A stretch of 64,000 nucleotides of DNA, from NCBI GenBank assembly GCA_022793875.1, contig JAAWDR010000030.1, forward strand, positions 2,869 through 66,868. Direction: 5' to 3'. The translations under genes were made by a program, and so were the position numbers. The notes under the pieces are model-generated. The model did not search any database and was not told where the DNA came from. It saw only the letters and a list, made by a program, of their open reading frames with translations. Source of the stretch: Clostridia bacterium (GTDB lineage Bacteria > Bacillota > Clostridia > TANB77 > CAG-508). Shown here in pieces: positions 3,030 to 45,934 of the stretch (positions are counted from its first letter, which is position 1; each line of letters starts with the position of its first letter).

Positions 3030-4367
3030 GTGAAAAAATTTAAAAAGGGAACTAATGGGATAACATTAATCGCTTTAATAATAACAATAATAATTTTGAT
3101 ATTATTAGTAGGAATAACAATATCAAGTTTAACAGGAAGTGGATTATTTCAAAAAGCAGAAGATGCTGTAAAAGCAAGTGATAGAGCAAATGTAAAAGAG
3201 CAATTGAAATTAGCAGTAATGGCATCAATAAATGAAGATGGAAATATAGACAAAGATGAATTAAGAAAAGAATTAGAAAAGTTAAAAAATAGAGGTACAA
3301 TAGATAGTTATGAGCAAGGAGAAGAAGATTCGGAGATATTATATACTGCAACAAAAGGAAAAGATTTATATGAAATTAAAGAAAATAGAGAAGTAGAGAT
3401 AAAAGAAAATTATAATAAATTAGATGTAAAAGTAGGAGACTATGTAAATTACACACCAGATAAGCCAACATCAGAACAATTAACAGAATTAAATAGTGAA
3501 ATAAACAACTATTCAGGAAGTTCAGGGCAAAATTTAAGTCAGGCATCAGAAATGAAATGGAGAGTATTAGAAATAGATGAGAAGACTGGAAAACCAACAA
3601 AGTTAATAAGTGGAAAAGAAACAAATGAAAGCTTAAAATTATATGGAGCAAATGGATATAATAATGCAGTATATTTATTAAATAGAGCATGTGAAATATT
3701 ATACAGTAAAAATGGAATAGGCAAAGCAAGAAGTATAACGATAGAAGATTTGGAAGTACATTATAGTGAAGCAGGTAATAATGCAAGAGACACATATAAA
3801 TATAATAATAATACTGCAAATGGAAATAAATATGGAGATATAAGTAGATTTACAGGAAGCAATGCATATTATCCTAAAATATCATTAGAAGAGAACAATA
3901 TAGGAGTAAATACAATGCCATTAGATGAAAATAATAGAAATCCATTAAAAACTGATGGACTAGACATTAGTGAACAAGATAAAATATATACAGGAAATGG
4001 TCAAGCAAATACAAGTGGAATAACATTAAAGCAGACATATTATAGCTTAGGTTCATTATCAGATTTGTCAAAAGCATATGAAGAAAGTATATATTATGAG
4101 CTATTTCATAGTGCAATAAGTGTTTCACATTGGTTAGCATCTCGTAGTGTTATTACATGGGCAGGATATAGTTATTGTGATTTTCGTGCGCGTTATGTTA
4201 ATTATAGTCACCTTAGTGTTCGTAATTTATTTGGTTCTCTTTACTATAATGATGGTTATACAGATAGAATGAGACCAATAGTTTTACTAGAAAATGATAT
4301 TAAAATGGAATGTGAAGGAAAGTTTGAGGACAGTTTATATAGTATATGGAGTTTTGTGAATATATAA
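3030..4367 (+). CDS. prepilin-like N-terminus protein, paralog 1 (C-terminal WLASR...RPIV module)
   Basis: GTG start 8 nt after AAGGAG. N-terminus is MKKFKKGTNG|ITLIALIITIIILILLVGITISSLTG (G then hydrophobic helix, Ala not Glu at +5). Shares a 49-nt identical block with the 4506 gene. Confidence 0.75.
   Translation: MKKFKKGTNGITLIALIITIIILILLVGITISSLTGSGLFQKAEDAVKASDRANVKEQLKLAVMASINEDGNIDKDELRKELEKLKNRGTIDSYEQGEEDSEILYTATKGKDLYEIKENREVEIKENYNKLDVKVGDYVNYTPDKPTSEQLTELNSEINNYSGSSGQNLSQASEMKWRVLEIDEKTGKPTKLISGKETNESLKLYGANGYNNAVYLLNRACEILYSKNGIGKARSITIEDLEVHYSEAGNNARDTYKYNNNTANGNKYGDISRFTGSNAYYPKISLEENNIGVNTMPLDENNRNPLKTDGLDISEQDKIYTGNGQANTSGITLKQTYYSLGSLSDLSKAYEESIYYELFHSAISVSHWLASRSVITWAGYSYCDFRARYVNYSHLSVRNLFGSLYYNDGYTDRMRPIVLLENDIKMECEGKFEDSLYSIWSFVNI
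4128..4262 (+). other. candidate orphan DGR variable region (adenine-depleted patch)
   Basis: About 22% A over about 120 nt versus roughly 45% in the rest of the gene (hand count). Four CGT Arg codons here while flanking Arg codons are AGA. No matching TR in the window. Confidence 0.35.
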
Positions 4368-4505: not shown

Positions 4506-5075
4506 ATGGAAAAGTTCAAAAATGCTAATAGAGGTATAACATTAGTAGCATTAGTAATTACAATAATTATATTATTAATTTTAGCTGGTATATCAATATC
4601 AAGTTTAACAGGAAGTGGATTATTTCAAAAAGCAGAAGATGCAAGAACAGAATATAGAGAAGCTGAAAATAGAGAAAACTCAATACTAGGAGAATATGAA
4701 AATTACATTAATAATTTAGGAAATAATTTATCTGATGGAGATAAAATTGTACATTTTTCTATAGATGGAGTAGAGTACTCATGTGAAAAGGGAAAAAGAT
4801 GGAAAGATTTTGTTGATTATGAAGCGTATGGAGGAGATGAAGTAGTAGCTTATTTAGATACATCACATTTTGGTGGTGAACATGATGAGAATCAAAAAAT
4901 ATATTGGATAGATTGGAGTACTTTCGAAGGTGGTGCGATAAGTATGGTTGCTTATTTTGTTAAATTAGACGGGGAATATATTTATTCAAATTCAGAAATT
5001 GTTTCTGGAAAGTATATTATATCTGATGAAGTTACTTCAATTTATAATTATGGAAATTGTTATATAAAATTTTAA
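4506..5075 (+). CDS. prepilin-like N-terminus protein, paralog 2
   Basis: MEKFKNANRG|ITLVALVITIIILLILAGISISSLTGSGLFQKAEDA...ENSILGEYENYINNLGN. The first ~70 codons are near-identical to the DGR target 13848..15035. The C-terminus is unrelated. Confidence 0.75.
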   Translation: MEKFKNANRGITLVALVITIIILLILAGISISSLTGSGLFQKAEDARTEYREAENRENSILGEYENYINNLGNNLSDGDKIVHFSIDGVEYSCEKGKRWKDFVDYEAYGGDEVVAYLDTSHFGGEHDENQKIYWIDWSTFEGGAISMVAYFVKLDGEYIYSNSEIVSGKYIISDEVTSIYNYGNCYIKF

Positions 5076-13847: not shown

Positions 13848-15035
13848 ATGAAAAAGCAAAACAAAGGTATAACACTTGTAGCATTAGTAATTACAATTAT
13901 CATATTATTAATTTTAGCGGGAATCTCAATAAGTGCATTAACAGGAAGTGGATTATTCCAAAAGGCAGGAGATGCCAAAAATAGTTATGAAGAAGCAGAA
14001 AGAAGAGAAAATTCAATATTAGGAGAATATGAAAACTATATTGATAATTTAGGAAATGGTGGAAGTACAGGAAGTTTACCATCAAATGCAGAAACAACAC
14101 CATATTTACCAGACTCAAGTAGTAAAATAATAGAAAATTCAAATTTAGAAACAGGATTAGTAGTAGCAGATAAAAATAATAATGAATGGGTATGGATAGT
14201 AGTGCCAAAATCAGTAACAGCAAGTGCAACAACAGATTTAGAAATAGAAAATGCATTACAAACATATGCAACAGATTATAGAAGTTCTTGGACAGATGAA
14301 TGGTATGAAGGATGTGGATTAACAGAAGCACAATATAATGAAAATAAAAGTAAAATGTTGCAAAGTATAAAAGCAAATGGAGGATTTTGGATAAGTAGAT
14401 ATGAAGCAGGAATAGAAGGAAGTGTGCAAAATCCATCTTTAGCAAGAACAGAGCCAGGAGAACTAACAACATCGTCACCAAAGGCAGTAAGTAAGCCAGA
14501 CCATATACCATATAATTGGGTAACATGTAGTCAAGCACAAAATCTAGCAAGTCAAATGAGTCCAGAGACAACAAAAACAAGTAGTTTATTATTTGGAATA
14601 CAATGGGATTTAGTGTGTAAGTACCTAGAGGGAAAAGACGGATTAACAACAGCAGATATAAATGAAGATAGTTCAAGTTGGGGAAATTATAGTAATAATT
14701 CATTAAATATAACAAGTGCAAAAGCTATGGGAGCAGAATTCAATACATCAACATATCAACTAGGAGAGTGGCAAAATGTTACTGAGAAACCAGCAAATAA
14801 ACTAAGTCTATTAACAACAGGAGCATCAATAGGAACTAAGAAGATGAATATATATAATTTTGCAAGTAATGAAGCAGAATGTACATTAGAAAAGGCGACC
14901 AGCAGCAGCGATCCATGTAGCATTAGGGGAGGCATTTACAGCCTTACAGGTTCCGACTATCCAGCTTCTGCTCGCAACGACTATGATCCTTCTAGCGGTA
15001 ACGACGTCATTGGTTTGCGCGTTTCACTTTATTAA
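13848..15035 (+). CDS. DGR variable (target) protein: prepilin-like N-terminus plus FGE/C-type-lectin-fold domain
   Basis: N-terminus MKKQNKG|ITLVALVITIIILLILAGISISALTG. SUMF1/FGE-like motifs GFWISRYEA, NWVTCSQAQNLA, LLFGIQWDLVCKYL, NIYNFASNEAECT, SIRGG, VIGLRVS. The last 47 codons match the TR. Confidence 0.9.
   Translation: MKKQNKGITLVALVITIIILLILAGISISALTGSGLFQKAGDAKNSYEEAERRENSILGEYENYIDNLGNGGSTGSLPSNAETTPYLPDSSSKIIENSNLETGLVVADKNNNEWVWIVVPKSVTASATTDLEIENALQTYATDYRSSWTDEWYEGCGLTEAQYNENKSKMLQSIKANGGFWISRYEAGIEGSVQNPSLARTEPGELTTSSPKAVSKPDHIPYNWVTCSQAQNLASQMSPETTKTSSLLFGIQWDLVCKYLEGKDGLTTADINEDSSSWGNYSNNSLNITSAKAMGAEFNTSTYQLGEWQNVTEKPANKLSLLTTGASIGTKKMNIYNFASNEAECTLEKATSSSDPCSIRGGIYSLTGSDYPASARNDYDPSSGNDVIGLRVSLY
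14892..15034 (+). other. DGR variable region (VR)
   Basis: Gap-free alignment to 16536-16678 (offset 1644). Mismatches fall almost exclusively at TR adenines. Confidence 0.9.
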
Positions 15036-15138
15036 AGTAGGACTGAACTCTAAAGCCGTGACTATAACATTATAAAAAAATTAGTTTTAAAAGTACAGAT
15101 TATGAAAAGAGTAATCTAACGAATTTAATACGTTAGAG

Positions 15139-15206
15139 GTGAAAATTTTTGTTTATCGCTAAATTTGACGAAGTCAAAAGTTTAGCGGTAAAAGAAAAAT
15201 TTTCAC
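15139..15206 (+). other. long imperfect nested hairpin downstream of the VR
   Basis: GTGAAAATTTTTGTTTATCGCTAAA pairs with TTTAGCGGTAAAAGAAAAATTTTCAC (12+3+7 bp). It encloses the inner hairpin TTTGAC-GAA-GTCAAA. Confidence 0.5.
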
Positions 15207-15217
15207 TCAAGCGGTGG

Positions 15218-15242
15218 CGCCACCCAAGCGGTGGCGTTTTTT
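15218..15242 (+). terminator. GC-rich intrinsic terminator between the target gene and the accessory/RT genes
   Basis: CGCCACC-CAAGC-GGTGGCG followed by TTTTTT. Preceded by a direct repeat of CAAGCGGTGGCG that could form an alternative pairing. Confidence 0.6.
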
Positions 15243-15294
15243 GTGCGTTTAGCACAAAGAACGTCACCAAAATAAAAAAAGGAGGTACGCCAAA

Positions 15295-15549
15295 ATGGCA
15301 TTTAGTAAAATGATAGAATTATTACAAAAGAAAGATGAAGGAAAAATAATACTAGTAAATGCAGGAGCATTTTATATAGCAAGAGGAAAAGATGCAGAAC
15401 TAAATACACAAAGAATATATCTAAGAATAATGAAAAATAACAAATGGATAGATGAAAGAAAATTCAGAATAGTAATGGAGCAAATATATGAAATAGGAAA
15501 AATACTAGGAGGACTATATAAACACTATGCCAAAAACAATCCGAAATGA
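15295..15549 (+). CDS. DGR accessory protein candidate (MutS-domain-I-like N-terminus, Avd-like C-terminus)
   Basis: 84 aa. GGAGG lies 9 nt upstream. KIILVNAGAFYIARGKDAE resembles the MutS N-terminal GDFYE..G.DA motif. C-terminal EQIYEIGKILGGLYKHY resembles an Avd helix. Overlaps the RT start by 23 nt. Confidence 0.55.
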   Translation: MAFSKMIELLQKKDEGKIILVNAGAFYIARGKDAELNTQRIYLRIMKNNKWIDERKFRIVMEQIYEIGKILGGLYKHYAKNNPK

Positions 15550-16462
15550 ATTTGAAAAGCATTTAACATATGAAAAATTAATGGAAGCACACAAAAAATC
15601 AAAAAAAGGAAAAGGATACAGAAAAGAAATAATAGAATTTAACTTAAAACAAGAAGAATATATAATATGGTTATTAGAACAATTAAAAACACAGAAATAC
15701 AAACATGGGGGATATACAACATTTTATGTAACAGAACCAAAATTAAGAAAAATAGAAAAATCAAGATACATAGATAGAATAGTACATAGATGGGTAGTAG
15801 ATAACTTTTTAGAACCAGCATTTGTACCACAATTTGTAAATACATCATTTGCATGTCTAAAAAATAAAGGAATGCACAAAGCATGTTTATATGTTCAAAA
15901 CACAATGAAGCACTGTAAAAACATATGGAATGAGCATTATATACTAAAAATGGATGTATCAAAATATTTTGATACTATAGATAAAAAAATATTATTAAAA
16001 ATTATAGAAAAGAAAATAAAAGATAAAAAGCTATTATGGTTATTAAATGAAATAGATCAATTTATAAAACACAAATTACATATAAAATATTATTGTAGAT
16101 ATTTAGATGACAGTATAGTAATAGTAAAAACAAAGCAAGAAGCAAAAGATGCATTAATAAAAATACAAAAATATTTAAAAGAAAATTTAGAGCTAGAATT
16201 AAATAAAAAAACACAAATATTTAAAAATAAACAAGGAGTAAACTTTTGTGGATATAAAATAAATGAATATAGACTAAAAATAAGAGACAAAGGAAAAAGA
16301 AAATTAAAGAAAAAAGTAAAAAAATTAAAAGAACAAATAAAATTAGGGAAAATTACAAGCAAAGAAGCGCATAAATATTTAGCAGGCCATATGGGATATA
16401 TAAAATATGCAAATACAAGAAACTTAGAAAATAAATTATTTTATTTAGAAAGTGAACAATAA
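15527..16462 (+). CDS. DGR-type reverse transcriptase
   Basis: RT motifs FYVTEPKLRKIEKSRYIDRIVHRWV (1), SFACLKNKGMHKA (2), ILKMDVSKYFDTID (3), YCRYLDDSIVIV (5), NFCGYKI (7). The cognate TR/VR pair is adjacent. Confidence 0.9.
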   Translation: MPKTIRNEFEKHLTYEKLMEAHKKSKKGKGYRKEIIEFNLKQEEYIIWLLEQLKTQKYKHGGYTTFYVTEPKLRKIEKSRYIDRIVHRWVVDNFLEPAFVPQFVNTSFACLKNKGMHKACLYVQNTMKHCKNIWNEHYILKMDVSKYFDTIDKKILLKIIEKKIKDKKLLWLLNEIDQFIKHKLHIKYYCRYLDDSIVIVKTKQEAKDALIKIQKYLKENLELELNKKTQIFKNKQGVNFCGYKINEYRLKIRDKGKRKLKKKVKKLKEQIKLGKITSKEAHKYLAGHMGYIKYANTRNLENKLFYLESEQ

Positions 16463-16535: not shown

Positions 16536-16678
16536 AAAACGACCAACAGCAACAATCCATGTAGCAATAGGGGAGGCAATTACAACAATACAGGTTCCAA
16601 CAATCCAGCTTCTAACCGCAACAACAATGATCCTTCTAACAGTAACGACAACATTGGTTTACGCGTTTCACTCTAATA
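16536..16678 (+). other. DGR template repeat (TR)
   Basis: AAY-rich. In the VR frame it reads TTNSNNPCSNRGGNYNNTGSNNPASNRNNNDPSNSNDNIGLRVSL*. Lies 74 nt downstream of the RT stop. Confidence 0.9.
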
Positions 16679-16820
16679 TTATTTCAGATTATATATTTTA
16701 AGGAATATATACAGTAAAAATATTAGTATTAAAGAGATTTATTCCTTCCTAAATAGGTAAAAATGAATCAGTAGTGTTTGTATTTGTAAATTTGTTAATC
16801 GAATATATGAATAGTACGAA

Positions 16821-16944: not shown

Positions 16945-17190
16945 TTGAATTTAGTTTATATACAAGGAAAAATAATAAGTGACATAGAATTTAAATTTAT
17001 AATAAAAAGCAAAAACAAATCAATATCAATATTTAAATTAGAACTTACAAATAATTCAATAGTAACAATAAAGGCATATAATGAATTAGCAGATTATTGC
17101 TATAGTAAGTTAAATAAAGATGATATAATATTAATAGAAGGAAAATTAAACTCAAAATTAGAAATAATTCTTCAGATAATTGAACTGTAA
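16945..17190 (+). CDS. hypothetical small OB-fold/SSB-like protein
   Basis: TTG start after GGAGAG. The pattern VYIQGKII...IEGKL loosely resembles SSB/PriB OB folds. Weak assignment. Confidence 0.35.
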   Translation: MNLVYIQGKIISDIEFKFIIKSKNKSISIFKLELTNNSIVTIKAYNELADYCYSKLNKDDIILIEGKLNSKLEIILQIIEL

Positions 17191-33236: not shown

Positions 33237-33579
33237 TTTGTGAGTATAAATATATGAATTCATAGGAAGAGGATTAGAAATAATCTTCTTTTTTTTATAT
33301 AATAGGAAAGTGATACTTTCCTATTATATAAAACTCAATTGTACAGAAATTTTCTAACGAAAATTTCGCACACGAACAAATTAACTCTGAATATCTTTAA
33401 ATAAGAGTTATAATTCACAGTTAAAAAATTATTATATATTAAGTATTTTCAAATAAAATAAAAAGAGAGTTATGAATTGTAATAATAAAAAAATGTAGAA
33501 ACTTAAATATCAAATATTGAAAAATATAAAAATTATATATATAATATATAAAAAGTCAAATTTGAAGGAGAAAGTGAAA

Positions 33580-34107
33580 ATGAAAGAAAATAAAGGAATA
33601 ACAATGGTAGCATTAGTTATAATAATTATATTATTATTAATATTAGTGGGAGTATCAACAGGCACAGGAGGAAATTTAATAAAACAAACTAAATTAGAAA
33701 ATTTGAAAACAAATATGTTATTAATAAAAGTAAAAGCAAAAGAATATGTAGAAAATGCAAATTTTAATTTAGGAACAACATTTGAAAAGTTAACAGATGA
33801 AACTGAAAAGAATAATAGAATACAAAAAGCAAGAGAGGAATTAAAAGGAGAAGATGTTACAAGTACTATATCTTCATATAATATTAATATAAATGATAGT
33901 TCTGAAAATGTATATTATTATAAATTAGATACACAGACTTTATTAAATATAGGATTATCAAATTTAAAATCAGATGAAAAAGAAGGTTGGTATATAATCA
34001 GATATGATATAGTGAATGCTGAAGTTGAAGTATATAATTCAAAGGGATTTGAAAGTAATAATACTAAATATTATTCATTAAGCGATTTACAAAATATTGA
34101 AATATAA
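33580..34107 (+). CDS. prepilin-like N-terminus protein, paralog 4
   Basis: Internal ATG after the GAAGGAG RBS gives MKENKG|ITMVALVIIIILLLILVGVSTG. The ORF-track start at 33517 adds an implausible Ile/Lys-rich leader. Confidence 0.7.
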   Translation: MKENKGITMVALVIIIILLLILVGVSTGTGGNLIKQTKLENLKTNMLLIKVKAKEYVENANFNLGTTFEKLTDETEKNNRIQKAREELKGEDVTSTISSYNININDSSENVYYYKLDTQTLLNIGLSNLKSDEKEGWYIIRYDIVNAEVEVYNSKGFESNNTKYYSLSDLQNIEI

Positions 34108-40069: not shown

Positions 40070-42352
40070 TTATTGATTCAAATTATTTCTTCCTTTTAAA
40101 TCAACAATTATAGAATCACCATTATCAAAGAAAGTATTTGAACTTGTTGTATTTGTTTGATTTATATTTCTTTGAAGTAATTCATTATTATAATTATTAT
40201 GACTTGTAAAAGAATTTGTATATTTTTCAAAATCAAATGTTTTTGTTTTCTTAGGTTCTTTATATTTTGAATCTAAGTAATTAAGTTTTCCTTCACCAAC
40301 CATTAATCTACCACCAATATCCCTAATTTTAAATGTACAGTTTCTTTGAGATAAAGTTTGAAGTTTTCCAGGCTTAAAGTAAGGTACAAATTTCCATTCA
40401 ACATTACCATGTTTTGAATCATATTTCATCTTATCAAAATCAATAGTATTACCAAATGTCCACTCTCTTCTTGTACCAAATTCTTGACTCCACCATTCTA
40501 ATTCTTGAATTGTAGCTCCACCCATAAATATTTTACTAGCACAGTTTGATAAAATAGTCTGTTTAAAGTTTTGCTTAGAGTTAGCAGGTTCTAATTGTTC
40601 AAGGTTTTGAGCAGAAATTGTAGTACCGATTTTATATTTTCTATACATTGTAAATATTGGTTCTGTTGCTTTACAAATGAAATCAGGAAATTCGTCTATG
40701 TATAAGAAGTTTGGAACTCTAGAATTTTCATTTCCAGGTCTTCTTAAAACTGCATTTTGCATTGAAATTAAGAAGAATAATCCAAATGCTTTATGGCTAG
40801 AAGCACCTAAATCTCCACGTCTTGTACATACAAAAGTAATATCAGCATTTGCAAGCATGTTATCAAAGTTTATATTATTGTTTCTATTGCATAGTATTGT
40901 TTTTACTCCAGGTAATCTTAATAGTCTGTCTAGTTGACTAATTGCAACATCTATATATTTTTCAGTAGTTTCTTTTCCTGAACCATTTTTATAAAAGTTC
41001 TTTTTAAAATATGCTAATTGTACATTGTATTTTTCTTTTAGTTCTTCATTATGAGCTAAAATTTCACACATTTTTTCAACTAATTCAAAGTTTGTGAACA
41101 TTTTTAACATATCTTCTAGATTAGGTAACTTTCCATCATTCATTCTAGGATACATTTCTTTAAGTAATATAGCAACATTTTCAATTGCTTGAATTACAAC
41201 TGATTCTCTATAGGCTTCTTCTGATTCATTATTAGATATATCAAACATTGTTTTTAATACAGAAGATATTGTAATTGCTATTTTATTTGAATCATCATAA
41301 ACAAAAGGATTTAGTCCAATAGAGTTACTATCTGATGGATCTATAATATTATAAGATAATCCAAAGTTTTTACAAACATTTATCATATGGTCTGAGATTT
41401 CTCTGTCAGGTGATAACACTGTTATACCACAATTTTTATAAGTAATTCCTCCTGAAGTATCTAATATCATTTTTTTCATATATCCTTTATAAACATCTTC
41501 ACTACCATAAGTTGGTGATAACATGTTTAAATTAAAGTTGTTATTTAAATATTCATTGTCATAAGGAGCATTTAATACAGCAATTCCAGTTTTTAAAGCT
41601 GTAAATCCCATTTCTTTTGAAACTTCTCTAAAGAAGAATTTTCTATCTAAATCTCTGGCTATTAATGGTTCATAAATTAGTGATGTTTTACCAGAACCAG
41701 AACCACCACATACAAACATTGATTGGTATCTAGATTCTTCTGGAATTATTATAGATTTTGCTGTTTCAAAGTCTTGGCATAAGTAAACTTCGCAAGTATA
41801 TGGACCATGACCTTTTGATTTATCTGATAAATCTATACCACCATAATCCCAAATAGAACGAACCATGTCTTTAGTATCATTAACACCAAAATATAAAAAT
41901 TTGAATATTTTTGGTATTATGAAAGCTGGAAATAGTATTGTTAATGATGTTAAAGCAGGTCTTACTAATTCTGAGAAGTCAGTAATTAAATCTACATATC
42001 CAGGGTTAAATATTAATAATAACCATACCCCTAAATTAAGCCATTGTGTAAACATTGATATTGCGATAACACTTAATCCAATTACAAAAGTATAAAAGAG
42101 TGCGACTTTTGTGGTTCTTGTTTTTGCAAATTCAGATGGGCCTGAAAATAAAAATGCAAATACTGGACAAGCAAGTGCAAATGTATATTTTAAAGGTCCC
42201 CAATATGAGTATGATATTCCTGTGAATAACATTAATAAAATTTCTACTATTCTATCAACAGCAAAATATATTGTTAATAGAGTTAATATATATGTTGCAA
42301 AGGTATTTCTAGTAGTACCTAGCTTTTTTAAAAAATTATCTATTATTTTCAT
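40070..42352 (-). CDS. VirD4/TraG/TraD-like type IV coupling-protein-family ATPase (orphan)
   Basis: N-terminal TM helices, Walker A FVCGGSGSGKTS, Walker-B-like NFLYIDEFPDF, SAQNLEQL, SNCASKIFMGG. No relaxase or T4SS genes adjacent. Confidence 0.75.
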   Translation of the reverse strand: MKIIDNFLKKLGTTRNTFATYILTLLTIYFAVDRIVEILLMLFTGISYSYWGPLKYTFALACPVFAFLFSGPSEFAKTRTTKVALFYTFVIGLSVIAISMFTQWLNLGVWLLLIFNPGYVDLITDFSELVRPALTSLTILFPAFIIPKIFKFLYFGVNDTKDMVRSIWDYGGIDLSDKSKGHGPYTCEVYLCQDFETAKSIIIPEESRYQSMFVCGGSGSGKTSLIYEPLIARDLDRKFFFREVSKEMGFTALKTGIAVLNAPYDNEYLNNNFNLNMLSPTYGSEDVYKGYMKKMILDTSGGITYKNCGITVLSPDREISDHMINVCKNFGLSYNIIDPSDSNSIGLNPFVYDDSNKIAITISSVLKTMFDISNNESEEAYRESVVIQAIENVAILLKEMYPRMNDGKLPNLEDMLKMFTNFELVEKMCEILAHNEELKEKYNVQLAYFKKNFYKNGSGKETTEKYIDVAISQLDRLLRLPGVKTILCNRNNNINFDNMLANADITFVCTRRGDLGASSHKAFGLFFLISMQNAVLRRPGNENSRVPNFLYIDEFPDFICKATEPIFTMYRKYKIGTTISAQNLEQLEPANSKQNFKQTILSNCASKIFMGGATIQELEWWSQEFGTRREWTFGNTIDFDKMKYDSKHGNVEWKFVPYFKPGKLQTLSQRNCTFKIRDIGGRLMVGEGKLNYLDSKYKEPKKTKTFDFEKYTNSFTSHNNYNNELLQRNINQTNTTSSNTFFDNGDSIIVDLKGRNNLNQ

Positions 42353-43682: not shown

Positions 43683-45524
43683 TTATTCTACAGTAACAGA
43701 TTTAGCTAAATTTCTAGGTTTATCAACATCTAATCCCTTTTCTTTTGAGATATAATAAGCCAGTAATTGAAGAGGAATAATTGATAATATTGGAGATACA
43801 AATTGATTAGTATCTGGAATATTAATAACAACATTAAACATGTCATTATCTAGCTTTTGATTTGTTATAACTAAAGTTTTTGCACCACGAGTAATAACTT
43901 CTTGAATATTACTAATAGTTTTCTTTATTAAATCTTTATCTGTTAAGATACTAATAACAGTAATTCCATTTTCAATTAAAGCAATAGGACCATGTTTTAA
44001 TTCGCCAGCTGCATAGCTTTCAGAGTGAATATAAGAAATTTCTTTTAGTTTTAAAGAACCTTCTTTACTTACAGTTTCATCAATTCCTCGACCTAAGAAG
44101 AATATATCTTTTTCTTGATAAATTTGTTTAGCAAAATTTTTTATTTGATTATTGCATGTTAATGTCTCTTCAATTTTTTTAGGCAAATCTAAAATATCAC
44201 TTTTTAGTTTATTTAGAATATCTTTATCTTTTTTCTCCAAAACTTCAGCAAAATATATAGCTAAAATATTAATTAATATAACTTGAGAAGTATAAGCTTT
44301 GGTTGAGGCTACAGCTATTTCTGGTCCAGCATGTGTATAAATAGAGTAATCTGCTTCTCTAGTTATAGAGCTTCCAATAACATTAGTAATTGCAATTGTT
44401 TTAGAGCCTTGTTCTTTTGAAAGTTTTAATGCTGCAATAGTGTCAGCTGTTTCTCCAGATTGAGAGATAAAAATGCATAAAGTTTTTTCATCTAATATAG
44501 GATTTCTATATCTGAATTCTGATGCAATATCTACTTCAACAGGAATTCTACAAAGTTTTTCAATTGTATTTTTTCCACTTAATCCAGCATGCATTGCTGT
44601 ACCACATGCAACTATATAAATTTTGTTTAAATTTTGTAAATATTCTTTTGTTAAGTTAAGTTCTTCAAATTCACATTTGGAATTTAAATTAATTCTAGAA
44701 CCTATAGTTTCTCTAATTGCTTTAGGTTGTTCATAAATTTCCTTAAGCATGAAATCATCATATCCATCTTTTTCAGCACTTGAAGAATTCCATTCAATAT
44801 TTTGAACTTTTTTATTAATTTTATCTAAATTTTTATCAAAAAACTCAATATTATTTCTTGTTAATAATGCAAATTCAAAATCATTTAGAAGATAGAAATT
44901 TCTAGTATAAGAAAGTATAGCTGGTATATCAGAAGATAAATATTTTTCATCTTCGCATGTACCAATAACTAAAGGACTATCTTTTCTTACAACAATCATG
45001 TTATCAGTGTAAAGAGATGAAATTACTTCTATTGCAAAACTTCCTTTTAAATCCATACAAGCATTTTTTACAGCTCTTAGATATTTTTGTTTGTCATTTT
45101 TTTCGTCTTTTGTAAAATAGTAGTGTATCAAATTTGGTATAACTTCTGTATCTGTTTGAGAATAAAAGGTATAACCATTTTCAGTTAAAAATTTTCTTAA
45201 TTCATTGTAATTTTCAATAATTCCATTATGTACTACACTAAAAGTTTTTGAATTATCTTGATGCGGATGTGAATTTTCTTTTGAAGGTACTCCATGAGTT
45301 GCCCATCTTGTATGTGCAATACCTATTGTTCCTTCTAATTCATTAATTCCATCTAAATTTGATAAATTTTTTACTCTTCCTTTATCTTTCATTAAAGATA
45401 AGCCTTTTTTTTCTATTGTTGAAATTCCAGCTGAGTCATATCCTCTGTATTCCAATCTATTTAAACCTGCCAAAAGTATAGGGCAAGCTTTTTTTGTTCC
45501 TATGTAACCTACAATTCCACACAT
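43683..45524 (-). CDS. glmS: glutamine--fructose-6-phosphate aminotransferase
   Basis: MCGIVGYIG N-terminal nucleophile, two SIS domains, C-terminal KPRNLAKSVTVE. Confidence 0.97.
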   Translation of the reverse strand: MCGIVGYIGTKKACPILLAGLNRLEYRGYDSAGISTIEKKGLSLMKDKGRVKNLSNLDGINELEGTIGIAHTRWATHGVPSKENSHPHQDNSKTFSVVHNGIIENYNELRKFLTENGYTFYSQTDTEVIPNLIHYYFTKDEKNDKQKYLRAVKNACMDLKGSFAIEVISSLYTDNMIVVRKDSPLVIGTCEDEKYLSSDIPAILSYTRNFYLLNDFEFALLTRNNIEFFDKNLDKINKKVQNIEWNSSSAEKDGYDDFMLKEIYEQPKAIRETIGSRINLNSKCEFEELNLTKEYLQNLNKIYIVACGTAMHAGLSGKNTIEKLCRIPVEVDIASEFRYRNPILDEKTLCIFISQSGETADTIAALKLSKEQGSKTIAITNVIGSSITREADYSIYTHAGPEIAVASTKAYTSQVILINILAIYFAEVLEKKDKDILNKLKSDILDLPKKIEETLTCNNQIKNFAKQIYQEKDIFFLGRGIDETVSKEGSLKLKEISYIHSESYAAGELKHGPIALIENGITVISILTDKDLIKKTISNIQEVITRGAKTLVITNQKLDNDMFNVVINIPDTNQFVSPILSIIPLQLLAYYISKEKGLDVDKPRNLAKSVTVE

Positions 45525-45544: not shown

Positions 45545-45712
45545 AATAAATATTGAGAATTGAAAGTTTGCAATACTTAATTTATTAATTTTTGTTCTAA
45601 TATTTCTATTAGTTTTTAATTAATAATAATGACTTTAAGTGTAGCCACTAGAGAATCCGCCGAATATTTCGATATCTCTAGACCTCGTCAACCAATATGG
45701 TCCTGGCGCTTA
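45545..45712 (-). ncRNA. glmS ribozyme: glmS ribozyme/riboswitch
   Basis: Minus strand reads A|GCGCCAGGAC...GACGAGG..AUAUCGAAAUAUUCGGCGGAU..GGCU, matching the conserved glmS core directly upstream of glmS. The 3' boundary is approximate. Confidence 0.8.
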
Positions 45713-45934
45713 TTATTTTTTTGACTCCTTTCTTAAATAATAATATAAATGCAACTTTCATAATATAATTGTTTTCATAAATAAAATTCTTATTTCAACA
45801 ATTATATTTTATTATATTACTACATATATAAATTTTGTGCAAGTCTAATTTACACTTACACAAAGATGTTGATTTTGTTAGCTAAAATAGTGTATAATGT
45901 AAGTATAGATTATATTTAAGAAAGGAAATAAAAG

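Follow-up and report, generated by a model that had tools for sequence, protein, structure and literature searches.

How is a protein whose binding face has been rewritten by a diversity-generating retroelement (DGR) presented outside the cell of an uncultured gut bacterium? The question is raised by a stretch of 64,000 nucleotides from a Clostridia bacterium (GenBank assembly GCA_022793875.1, contig JAAWDR010000030.1, positions 2,869 to 66,868 of the forward strand; hereafter the window, with positions counted from its first letter), in which a DGR target gene encodes a protein with a pilin-like N-terminus and a putative C-type lectin-like (CLec-like) C-terminal domain. Comparison with related loci indicated that, judged by sequence homology, the N-terminal ∼65 residues of the target are a pilin module, homologous to the pilin encoded in the type IV pilus (T4P) operon of the lineage. 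We consider it moderately probable that the target, from an uncultured lineage of spore-forming gut Clostridia with low GC content, is a modular type IV pilin-like adhesin displayed via T4P, with the DGR at this locus being a relic.

Architecture of the target protein and its family

The target gene and the parts of its product were delimited as follows.

13848 to 15035 (stop codon included), forward strand: DGR target gene, an open reading frame (ORF) with a good to strong ribosome-binding site, encoding a modular pilin-like protein of 395 aa.
13848 to 13868, forward strand: basic leader MKKQNKG with Gly at −1, a predicted class III (prepilin-type) signal with putative cleavage after Gly7, in register with G/FTLIE (slash, cleavage site) of solved pilins.
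13869 to 14051, forward strand: pilin-type alpha1 module (aa 8 to 68), a hydrophobic helix (ITLVALVITIIILLILAGISI) and then an amphipathic one, from profile and identity matches.
14052 to 14150, forward strand: Gly/Ser/Pro-rich linker (aa 69 to 101), from the family alignment.
14151 to 14378, forward strand: conserved beta/alpha subdomain (aa 102 to 177), fold unassigned, NNNEWVW..VPK..WTDEWY..GCG, from invariant alignment columns; modelled with a predicted local distance difference test (pLDDT) score of 80 to 96.
14379 to 15032, forward strand: FGE-sulfatase-type (CLec-like) domain (aa 178 to 395), from family-level matches to PF03781.

The reading frame, its N-terminus (MKKQNKG followed by ITLVALVITIIILLILAG) and all of the C-terminal motifs quoted in the original prediction, an earlier reading of this DNA (GFWISRYEA, NWVTCSQAQNLA, LLFGIQWDLVCKYL, NIYNFASNEAECT, SIRGG, and IGLRVS), were present as described, with the translation beginning MKKQNKGITLVALVITIIILLILAGISISALTG. 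Identical copies of the protein (P0001) were found in 12 contigs, and the same sequence is carried by an NCBI protein of a metagenome-assembled genome (MAG) named "Clostridia bacterium," for which the JGI source label is type II secretory pathway pseudopilin.

More than 7,000 relatives of the target were scored, the best of which aligned over the full length at ∼50% identity, and conservation was read from alignments of 35 and 118 family members. The N-terminus was conserved as G/ITL[IV]AL[IV]ITII.LLILAG, with the leader Gly (−1) kept in at least 90% of the family, and helices were predicted by AlphaFold at residues 6 to 32 and 36 to 69. The following linker differed in length among paralogs (family alignment A1), and the conserved motifs beyond it were NNNEWVW..VPK and WTDEWY.GCG in the subdomain, GGFWI.RYEA, LMFGIQWDL, and NIYDFAGNEWEWT in the C-terminal domain, and PC..RGG...GS..P.S.R....GFR..LY in the C-terminal scaffold. 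A scan of one genome per GTDB species revealed 344 relatives, every one of them in a MAG of uncultured gut Clostridia (human, mouse, rabbit, or chicken), and a single MAG (CAKPOI01) carried at least 17 family loci. A tblastn search with a canonical member against 50,697 phage records gave no match; the family is therefore cellular rather than phage-borne.

The N-terminal module and the type IV pilus operon

Profile searches placed the module in register with G/FTLIE of Geobacter PilA-N, MshA, and PilE1, and the leader plus hydrophobic alpha1N of ∼20 residues that characterizes type IV pilins was found in the target. The N_methyl profile (PF07963) matched 41 of the 118 family members at an E value of <0.01 and 66 of 142 module-bearing proteins. 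A search with residues 1 to 68 retrieved 1,791 proteins, the best of which were stand-alone proteins of 68 to 80 aa made of exactly the module. Five of the seven stand-alone mini-proteins examined (four of six looked up by protein id, plus P0125 in locus L046) were located in a complete T4P operon, which was reached only by tracing these mini-pilins. Its gene order was rsmB, pilM/N (537 to 546 aa), two small membrane proteins, the mini-pilin, a PilD-like gene, two minor-pilin-like genes, PilB, PilT, and PilC, and Pfam supported the assignments of PilB (T2SSE, 348 bits), PilT (T2SSE), PilC (T2SSF), and the PilD-like protein (A24_N_bact, 105 bits). Such operons, in which the mini-pilin genes encode 70 to 77 aa, were found with the stand-alone homologs of the module in related gut MAGs (L046, L103, and L105 to L110). 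The operon mini-pilin of L107 matched N_methyl at 23.0 bits, above the cutoff of 21.2, and was 67% identical to the window module over 66 aa. The N-terminus of the target is therefore a homolog of a genuine T4P pilin found in this lineage. In the MAG MGBC163007 (L046), moreover, a target-family gene of 447 aa lies 4 kb upstream of the T4P operon.

The module is also far more widespread than the target family. Among 1.84 billion cluster representatives, its profile matched 31,458 at an E value of ≤1e-3 and 16,244 at ≤1e-10, and in the top 150 clusters (72 to 479 aa) it was N-terminal or nearly so in all 150. The C-terminal parts of the 142 module proteins scanned were matched by Big_2, Flg_new, fn3, Glug, MBG_2, or FGE-sulfatase, or were unannotated. 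The target itself thus combines the module (with its leader, aa 1 to 68), a Gly/Ser/Pro linker, and an FGE-type domain, where other proteins carry other C-terminal domains, and this occurrence on many different C-terminal domains is, by analogy, the pattern of modular type IV pilins (Raynaud et al. 2021, PMC8179133).

The C-terminal domain at family level

Sequence profiles supported the assignment of the C-terminal domain as FGE-type and CLec-like. PF03781 was matched by 50 of the 118 family members at an E value of <0.01; two relatives of the window protein at ∼50% identity, P0025 (27.6 bits) and P0028 (26.1 bits), exceeded the cutoff of 23.3 over model positions 127 to 253. When the family profile was compared with PDB sequences, the only matches were pilins at the N-terminus and SUMF2/FGE at the C-terminus (SUMF2, E = 0.034). 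The second Trp of the core motif GNxWEW was conserved in at least 90% of the family; in the window this motif is degenerate, reading SNEAEC where the family has GNEWEW. AlphaFold models reached a pLDDT of 60 at full length (35 sequences) and 72 for the domain only (118 sequences).

A DGR target beside a broken mutator

The variable and template elements of the DGR are the following.

14896 to 15034, forward strand: variable region (VR), codons 350 to 395, a 139-nt direct repeat with the template region.
16540 to 16678, forward strand: template region (TR), intact, repeat partner of the VR.
15010 to 15028, forward strand: candidate initiation of mutagenic homing (IMH) site at the VR 3' end, TTGGTTTGCGCGTTTCACT, proposed from comparison of VR and TR.
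16671 to 16817, forward strand: RT-14 RNA motif (Rfam RF02921), immediately downstream of the TR, full-length cmscan match of 97.3 bits against a gathering score of 48.1.

The two repeats were 84% identical, and 20 of their 22 mismatches were located at TR adenines, the other two being C-to-T changes. With adenine accounting for 51 of the 139 TR bases (37%), at least 20 of 22 mismatches would fall at adenines by chance with a p value of ∼2e-7 (binomial). Mismatches that fall almost only at template adenines are the mark of a DGR, and 14896–15034 and 16540–16678 are a TR/VR pair. Read in the VR frame, the TR comprises 16 AAY codons and 30 mutable codons, and the variable columns of the family alignment match its AAY codons. 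The placement of the VR at the very end of the domain was thus borne out, at a length of 46 rather than the predicted 47 codons. Within the candidate IMH, the TR has A where the VR has G at 15017. The RT-14 motif presumably makes up the structured portion of the DGR RNA; L014 and L017 retain its 5' ∼80 nt downstream of the TR, and L027 has a 47-nt fragment of it 3' of the target.

The rest of the cassette was annotated as follows.

15115 to 15245, forward strand: two hairpins followed by an intrinsic terminator (15216 to 15238 plus T run), from a terminator scan; fold z-score of −7.3 against shuffles for the region 3' of the VR (15100 to 15250, forward strand).
15295 to 15549, forward strand: fusion ORF of 84 aa, residues 1 to 34 of MSL (the MutS-like accessory protein) joined to the last ∼50 residues of Avd.
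15527 to 16462, forward strand: DGR reverse transcriptase (RT), 311 aa, RVT_1 match broken into two stretches.
16945 to 17190, forward strand: OB-fold/SSB-like ORF, 81 aa, candidate accessory gene, weak OB and SSB Pfam matches.

Reference cassettes at related loci consist of the target, MSL (155 to 179 aa), Avd (124 to 134 aa), RT (336 aa), TR, and an 80-aa OB-fold gene. MSL and Avd are separate genes of these sizes in L096, L064, and L014 and are intact in the first two. In comparison with such loci, a 558-nt deletion lies behind the fusion in the window, whose Pfam/NCBIfam matches are limited to Avd positions 61 to 106 (of 107) and a weak MutS_I match; an intact accessory protein (Avd with MSL) was thus lacking. 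The RT was not intact either: relative to the 336-aa RT of L017, which has motif 4 ([LI]GxxxSQ), a 28-aa in-frame deletion has taken this motif out (GLEIGNYTSQMFANIYL; IGNYTSQ). Both the 84-aa and 311-aa ORFs recurred in independent assemblies. The degenerate state of the neighboring DGR, with its MSL-Avd fusion, its RT without motif 4, and a VR that is frozen in the clone, had not been noted in the original prediction. The mutator in the window genome is a relic, and the DGR is now most likely inactive in cis; since MSL-Avd and RT are broken and the TR and RT-14 RNA are intact, further diversification would need RT and Avd in trans.

Strains were then compared. The target gene, VR included, was 100% identical in the window, L091, L096, L097, and L098 (consensus assemblies of a near-clonal lineage), and no ongoing VR diversification was seen among the consensus assemblies of the window clone. 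Because these strains are near-clonal with recombination patches, we treat VR identity across samples as moderate evidence of inactivity and dropped it as strong proof. Between the window and its sister L002, the VR region differed at 29 of 140 positions, 27 of them at TR adenines, and the rest of the gene at 25 of 1,048 positions; the DGR was therefore active after the two split. Outside the VR (13848 to 14895 versus L002 10001 to 11048), the synonymous divergence (dS) of the target was 0.026, which is 6 to 16 times lower than that of the flanking ATPase and SMC genes (0.16 and 0.41), and the first 210 nt of the gene were identical. The ratio of nonsynonymous to synonymous divergence (dN/dS) versus L002 was ∼0.9 outside the VR and 1.3 in the linker, and synteny between the two stopped 73 nt past the target stop codon (at 15108). 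This pattern suggests recent exchange, by recombination or transfer between strains, together with weak constraint.

Decay was not confined to the window. Cassettes adjoining family members were often decayed, each differently, with a truncated RT, a broken MSL/Avd, or an RT-14 remnant only (L014, L017, L027, L062, and window 15295 to 16462), and mutator loss seems to recur while targets persist. We also considered whether one TR serves many paralogs in the MAG CAKPOI01, which was not demonstrated: a high adenine fraction was found only in cassette-adjacent VRs (0.87 and 0.94), the others ranging from 0.35 to 0.78. Parts of the structured region 3' of the VR were also conserved downstream of several other family members, and the hairpins may have a role in target recognition or in transcription termination only. 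The ∼80-aa OB-fold/SSB-like gene was likewise present after the TR at L014 (13353 to 13601), L017 (13537 to 13779), and L027 (3241 to 3453) and absent in L066, where the target adjoins rpsF without a cassette, so that a gene traveling with the cassette in this way may be an undescribed DGR accessory gene.

A stand-alone prepilin peptidase

A stand-alone Peptidase_A24 of 250 aa with both catalytic Asp motifs (IDYKLQIIPN and GFGDVKL) was found in a conserved pheS-pheT-(ABC2)-HAD-A24-pepP-efp block. Its clade is large and 81 to 98% identical, and some members are labelled "prepilin peptidase" by NCBI. In three genomes (L002, L006, and L023), family genes were located 5 to 7 kb from A24: L006 to L008 have four pilin-like genes between ABC2 and HAD, L023 has two family genes upstream of pheS, and an ortholog of the window target lies upstream of pheS in L002/L012. 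Adjacency as a strong linkage was dropped, and it is taken as supportive only, because the pheST-HAD-A24-pepP-efp block often occurs without pilin-like genes.

The PilD-like protein of the operon (L107, 10342 to 11148) keeps the Cys-rich A24_N_bact domain and has KNIKL in place of the second catalytic motif, GDVKL; the stand-alone A24 (L006, 13186 to 13938) has both Asp motifs and is without the Cys-rich N-domain. From these motifs, PilD appears to be split in this lineage between the operon N-domain protein and the stand-alone A24. On the human-gut contig of L006, a multi-pass membrane protein of 615 aa with no Pfam match (L006, 10613 to 12460) is encoded between the four pilin-like genes and the HAD-A24 pair.

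Proposed display on a type IV filament and its alternatives

If the target behaves as a pilin, its hydrophobic helix would insert into the membrane, the A24 prepilin peptidase would remove the leader after Gly7, and the pilus machinery would extract the protein and lift it into filaments built mainly of the mini-pilin, in which the target would probably be a rare or minor, or a tip-located, subunit. The diversified ligand-binding face would thereby be held outside the cell wall, and dozens of paralogs per genome combined with DGR mutagenesis would yield a large adhesin repertoire. It is from the module and the operon that we infer pilus display of the target. A more far-reaching picture is offered tentatively, as one possibility: a retractile T4P of ∼65-residue, alpha1-only, Glu5-less pilins, loaded with dozens of interchangeable modular pilins, many of them with DGR-rewritten lectin-like heads, so that a two-layer repertoire (paralog choice times hypermutation) would be carried on one fibre; a split PilD would belong to the same system, and DGRs would for the first time be linked to type IV filaments.

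Several observations weigh against display on a pilus and lend strength to one rival or another. The window protein reached 18.3 bits with N_methyl, below the cutoff of 21.2. Mature position +5, where canonical pilins have the Glu used for assembly, is Ala, without exception in alignment A1 and in 107 of the 111 ORFs that carry the module; 1.35 Mb of related loci yielded no GFTLxE pilin, and the minor-pilin-like genes of the operon have Asp or Ser at +5. The original reading of a prepilin-like N-terminus is strengthened by the operon pilin of related MAGs and by the conserved A24 prepilin peptidases of the lineage. The module, with a length like that of alpha1-only pilins, is without a globular or beta-sheet pilin head. 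Most family members lie away from pilus genes; a scan of the first 90 loci, 1.35 Mb of flanking sequence, turned up no PilB-type Walker motif, and L046 was later seen to have a cut PilB; and tblastn of the window with A24, PilMN, PilD-like, PilB, PilT, and PilC proteins from related loci found none, as had been stated earlier for prepilin peptidase, assembly ATPase, and platform genes. In the nearest relative of the window organism (L002/L012, 18227 to 18980), a 1-nt insertion (GGGCGGAGC versus GGTGGAGC) frameshifts A24, which may be a real pseudogene. As for the C-terminal domain, the window protein has lost both Trp residues of the near-invariant NEWEW and had no Pfam match to PF03781 at an E value of <1, remaining below the FGE-sulfatase cutoff; residues 332 to 395, the VR part, had a pLDDT of <35 in its models, and Foldseek searches of the models against PDB (twice) and BFVD gave noise only, with no match at an E value of ≤0.001. 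The missing Pfam and structure matches are probably due to the lost tryptophans. The CLec/FGE domain that had been proposed is supported by Pfam and PDB profiles at the level of the family, and its fold remains putative. Lastly, the dN/dS of ∼0.9 implies that the gene may be decaying.

The absent Glu+5, the subthreshold N_methyl score, the distance of most loci from pilus genes, and the frameshifted A24 would all suit an uncleaved signal anchor, in which the helix holds the lectin-like domain at the outer face of the cytoplasmic membrane and the likeness to pilins is ancestral only, with neither processing nor polymerisation. Most cellular DGR targets do have an N-terminal transmembrane segment or signal peptide, and those of the "membrane-bound" class would be the natural parallel (Roux et al. 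2021, PMC8144416). We nevertheless consider an anchor unlikely: thousands of proteins whose C-termini are unrelated share a Gly at −1 and ∼20 almost invariant positions within 65 residues, which is unusual for simple anchors; the pilin gene of a T4P operon consists of this module and nothing else; and a linker of ∼30 aa would be too short to carry the domain across a Gram-positive wall. It is rather improbable that A24 cuts the leader and the protein, left unpolymerised, serves as a receptor that is associated with the membrane or spans the wall, or is released by the pilus machinery acting as a secretion piston, an arrangement that would resemble the archaeal class III sugar-binding proteins (bindosome) or a use of T4P like that of type II secretion systems. 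The highly conserved A24 stands alone in a housekeeping context and not in the pilus operon, and more than 16,000 module clusters are seemingly many for pilus subunits alone, which, with the lack of Glu+5, would accord with processing only. However, the operon has a retraction ATPase, PilT, and a module-only pilin, which points to a real filament with a core that the module is made to enter. Finally, the DGR, the target, and perhaps the peptidase could be in the course of being lost in this species, the ORF being intact and nonfunctional. The broken MSL-Avd and RT, the frozen VR, the lost core tryptophans, the weak constraint outside the VR, the frameshift in the sister strain, and the many decayed cassettes of related MAGs would all be expected in that case. 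Yet the 395-codon ORF is intact, with a strong ribosome-binding site and a terminator, the target is identical in 12 contigs, and its N-terminal 210 nt are unchanged between strains whose flanking genes have a dS of 0.16 to 0.41; we regard such a loss of function as improbable, and it would in any case be compatible with display of the family as a whole on type IV filaments.

Other genes in the window

Three further genes with pilin-like N-termini, not noted in the original prediction, were found in the window.

3030 to 4367, forward strand: paralog of 445 aa, pilin-type module as in the target, C-terminus unrelated.
4506 to 5075, forward strand: paralog of 189 aa, pilin-type module as in the target, C-terminus unrelated.
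33517 to 34107, forward strand: more divergent pilin-like ORF of ∼175 aa, likely start at 33580 (MKENKG/ITMVAL), weak ComGD-like match.

Apart from weak matches to pilin models (PilA and ComGD), mainly over the N-terminal part, no significant domain match was found in any of the three, and the C-terminus of the 445-aa paralog had no PDB, Pfam, or NCBIfam match. Elsewhere, an ordinary glmS ribozyme (Rfam RF00234, 77.2 bits; 45573 to 45721, reverse strand) lies upstream of glmS (43683 to 45524, reverse strand), and a TraG/VirD4-type coupling protein of 760 aa (TraG-D_C, T4SS-DNA_transf; 40070 to 42352, reverse strand) may be the remnant of a conjugative element.

Comparison with known systems

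Among FGE-type CLec proteins diversified by DGRs, TvpA of Treponema denticola is a lipoprotein with its VR at the extreme C-terminus. The window target resembles it in this position of the VR and in a ...RGG...R...GFR... scaffold between variable Asn-coded positions and differs from it in its pilin-type N-terminus and extra subdomain (aa 102 to 177), the likeness of fold being one of sequence. For the module, the best PDB sequence match was Geobacter PilA-N (9egp and 7tgg; E values of 0.0015 to 0.004). The mini-pilins are like such short, alpha1-only pilins in their mature length of ∼62 to 70 residues and in lacking a globular head. PilA-N differs in having Glu+5 and in pairing with PilA-C, whereas no partner is evident for the module here.

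IPR005532 is presumably the SUMF/FGE domain, so that we take the architecture IPR012902-IPR005532 to be an N-methyl motif followed by SUMF/FGE. This architecture is listed with 8 proteins in the dataset of modular type IV pilins, a group that includes PilB (vWA) and PilC (lectin) of Streptococcus sanguinis and whose members have been proposed as likely tip-exposed in filaments (Raynaud et al. 2021, PMC8179133; PMC9934059). Like them, the target has a class III signal with a pilin module, a short linker, and a putative functional binding module; unlike them, its module is alpha1-only without a beta-sheet head and has Ala at +5, the graft is DGR-hypervariable, and dozens of paralogs occur per genome.

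On the DGR side, the N-terminal hydrophobic segment and C-terminal CLec VR are shared with "membrane-bound" targets, and neither "pilin" nor N_methyl occurs in the text or supplements of that survey (Roux et al. 2021, PMC8144416). The order target-MSL-avd-RT-TR is that of MSL-type cassettes (architecture D), from which the window cassette differs in being broken, and "pilin" is absent from the main text of the study describing them (Wu et al. 2018, PMC5758913). A search of a literature library found no paper that meaningfully links DGRs to type IV pilins, prepilins, or pseudopilins. The view that the architecture had not been described was thus mostly right for the DGR literature and needs qualifying for the 8 proteins with N_methyl and SUMF mentioned above and for a "GspG-type pilin" domain among the rare VR-bearing domains of a 2024 survey. 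The architecture has been catalogued in passing; what is new is its analysis and its tie to a pilus operon.

DGR targets of gut Firmicutes are abundant and have so far been filed only as membrane-anchored binding proteins. If the N-terminus is a working type IV pilin module, it would give such targets a concrete display mechanism, and a very large modular pilin family (>16,000 clusters) built on an unusually small, Glu5-less pilin would bear on the assembly of type IV filaments. The window locus, with its broken DGR, is a poor experimental model; relatives with intact cassettes (of the L064 and L096 types) would be better ones. A close parallel is provided by Bacteroides, where DGRs diversify the tip adhesins of type V pili (Macadangdang et al., bioRxiv 10.1101/2024.11.15.621889). 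In both cases a DGR-diversified CLec (putative in the window) sits on a pilin-type carrier in a gut bacterium, as a hypervariable adhesin that is, or here would be, on a pilus. The Bacteroides proteins have a lipoprotein signal and assemble by strand exchange in a Gram-negative host, whereas in the window target, from Clostridia of the Gram-positive type, the carrier is the alpha1 module of a type IV pilin, with display proposed from gene content. If this display is real, adhesin variation driven by DGRs would be a feature of type IV filaments in Clostridia as well as of type V pili in Bacteroides.

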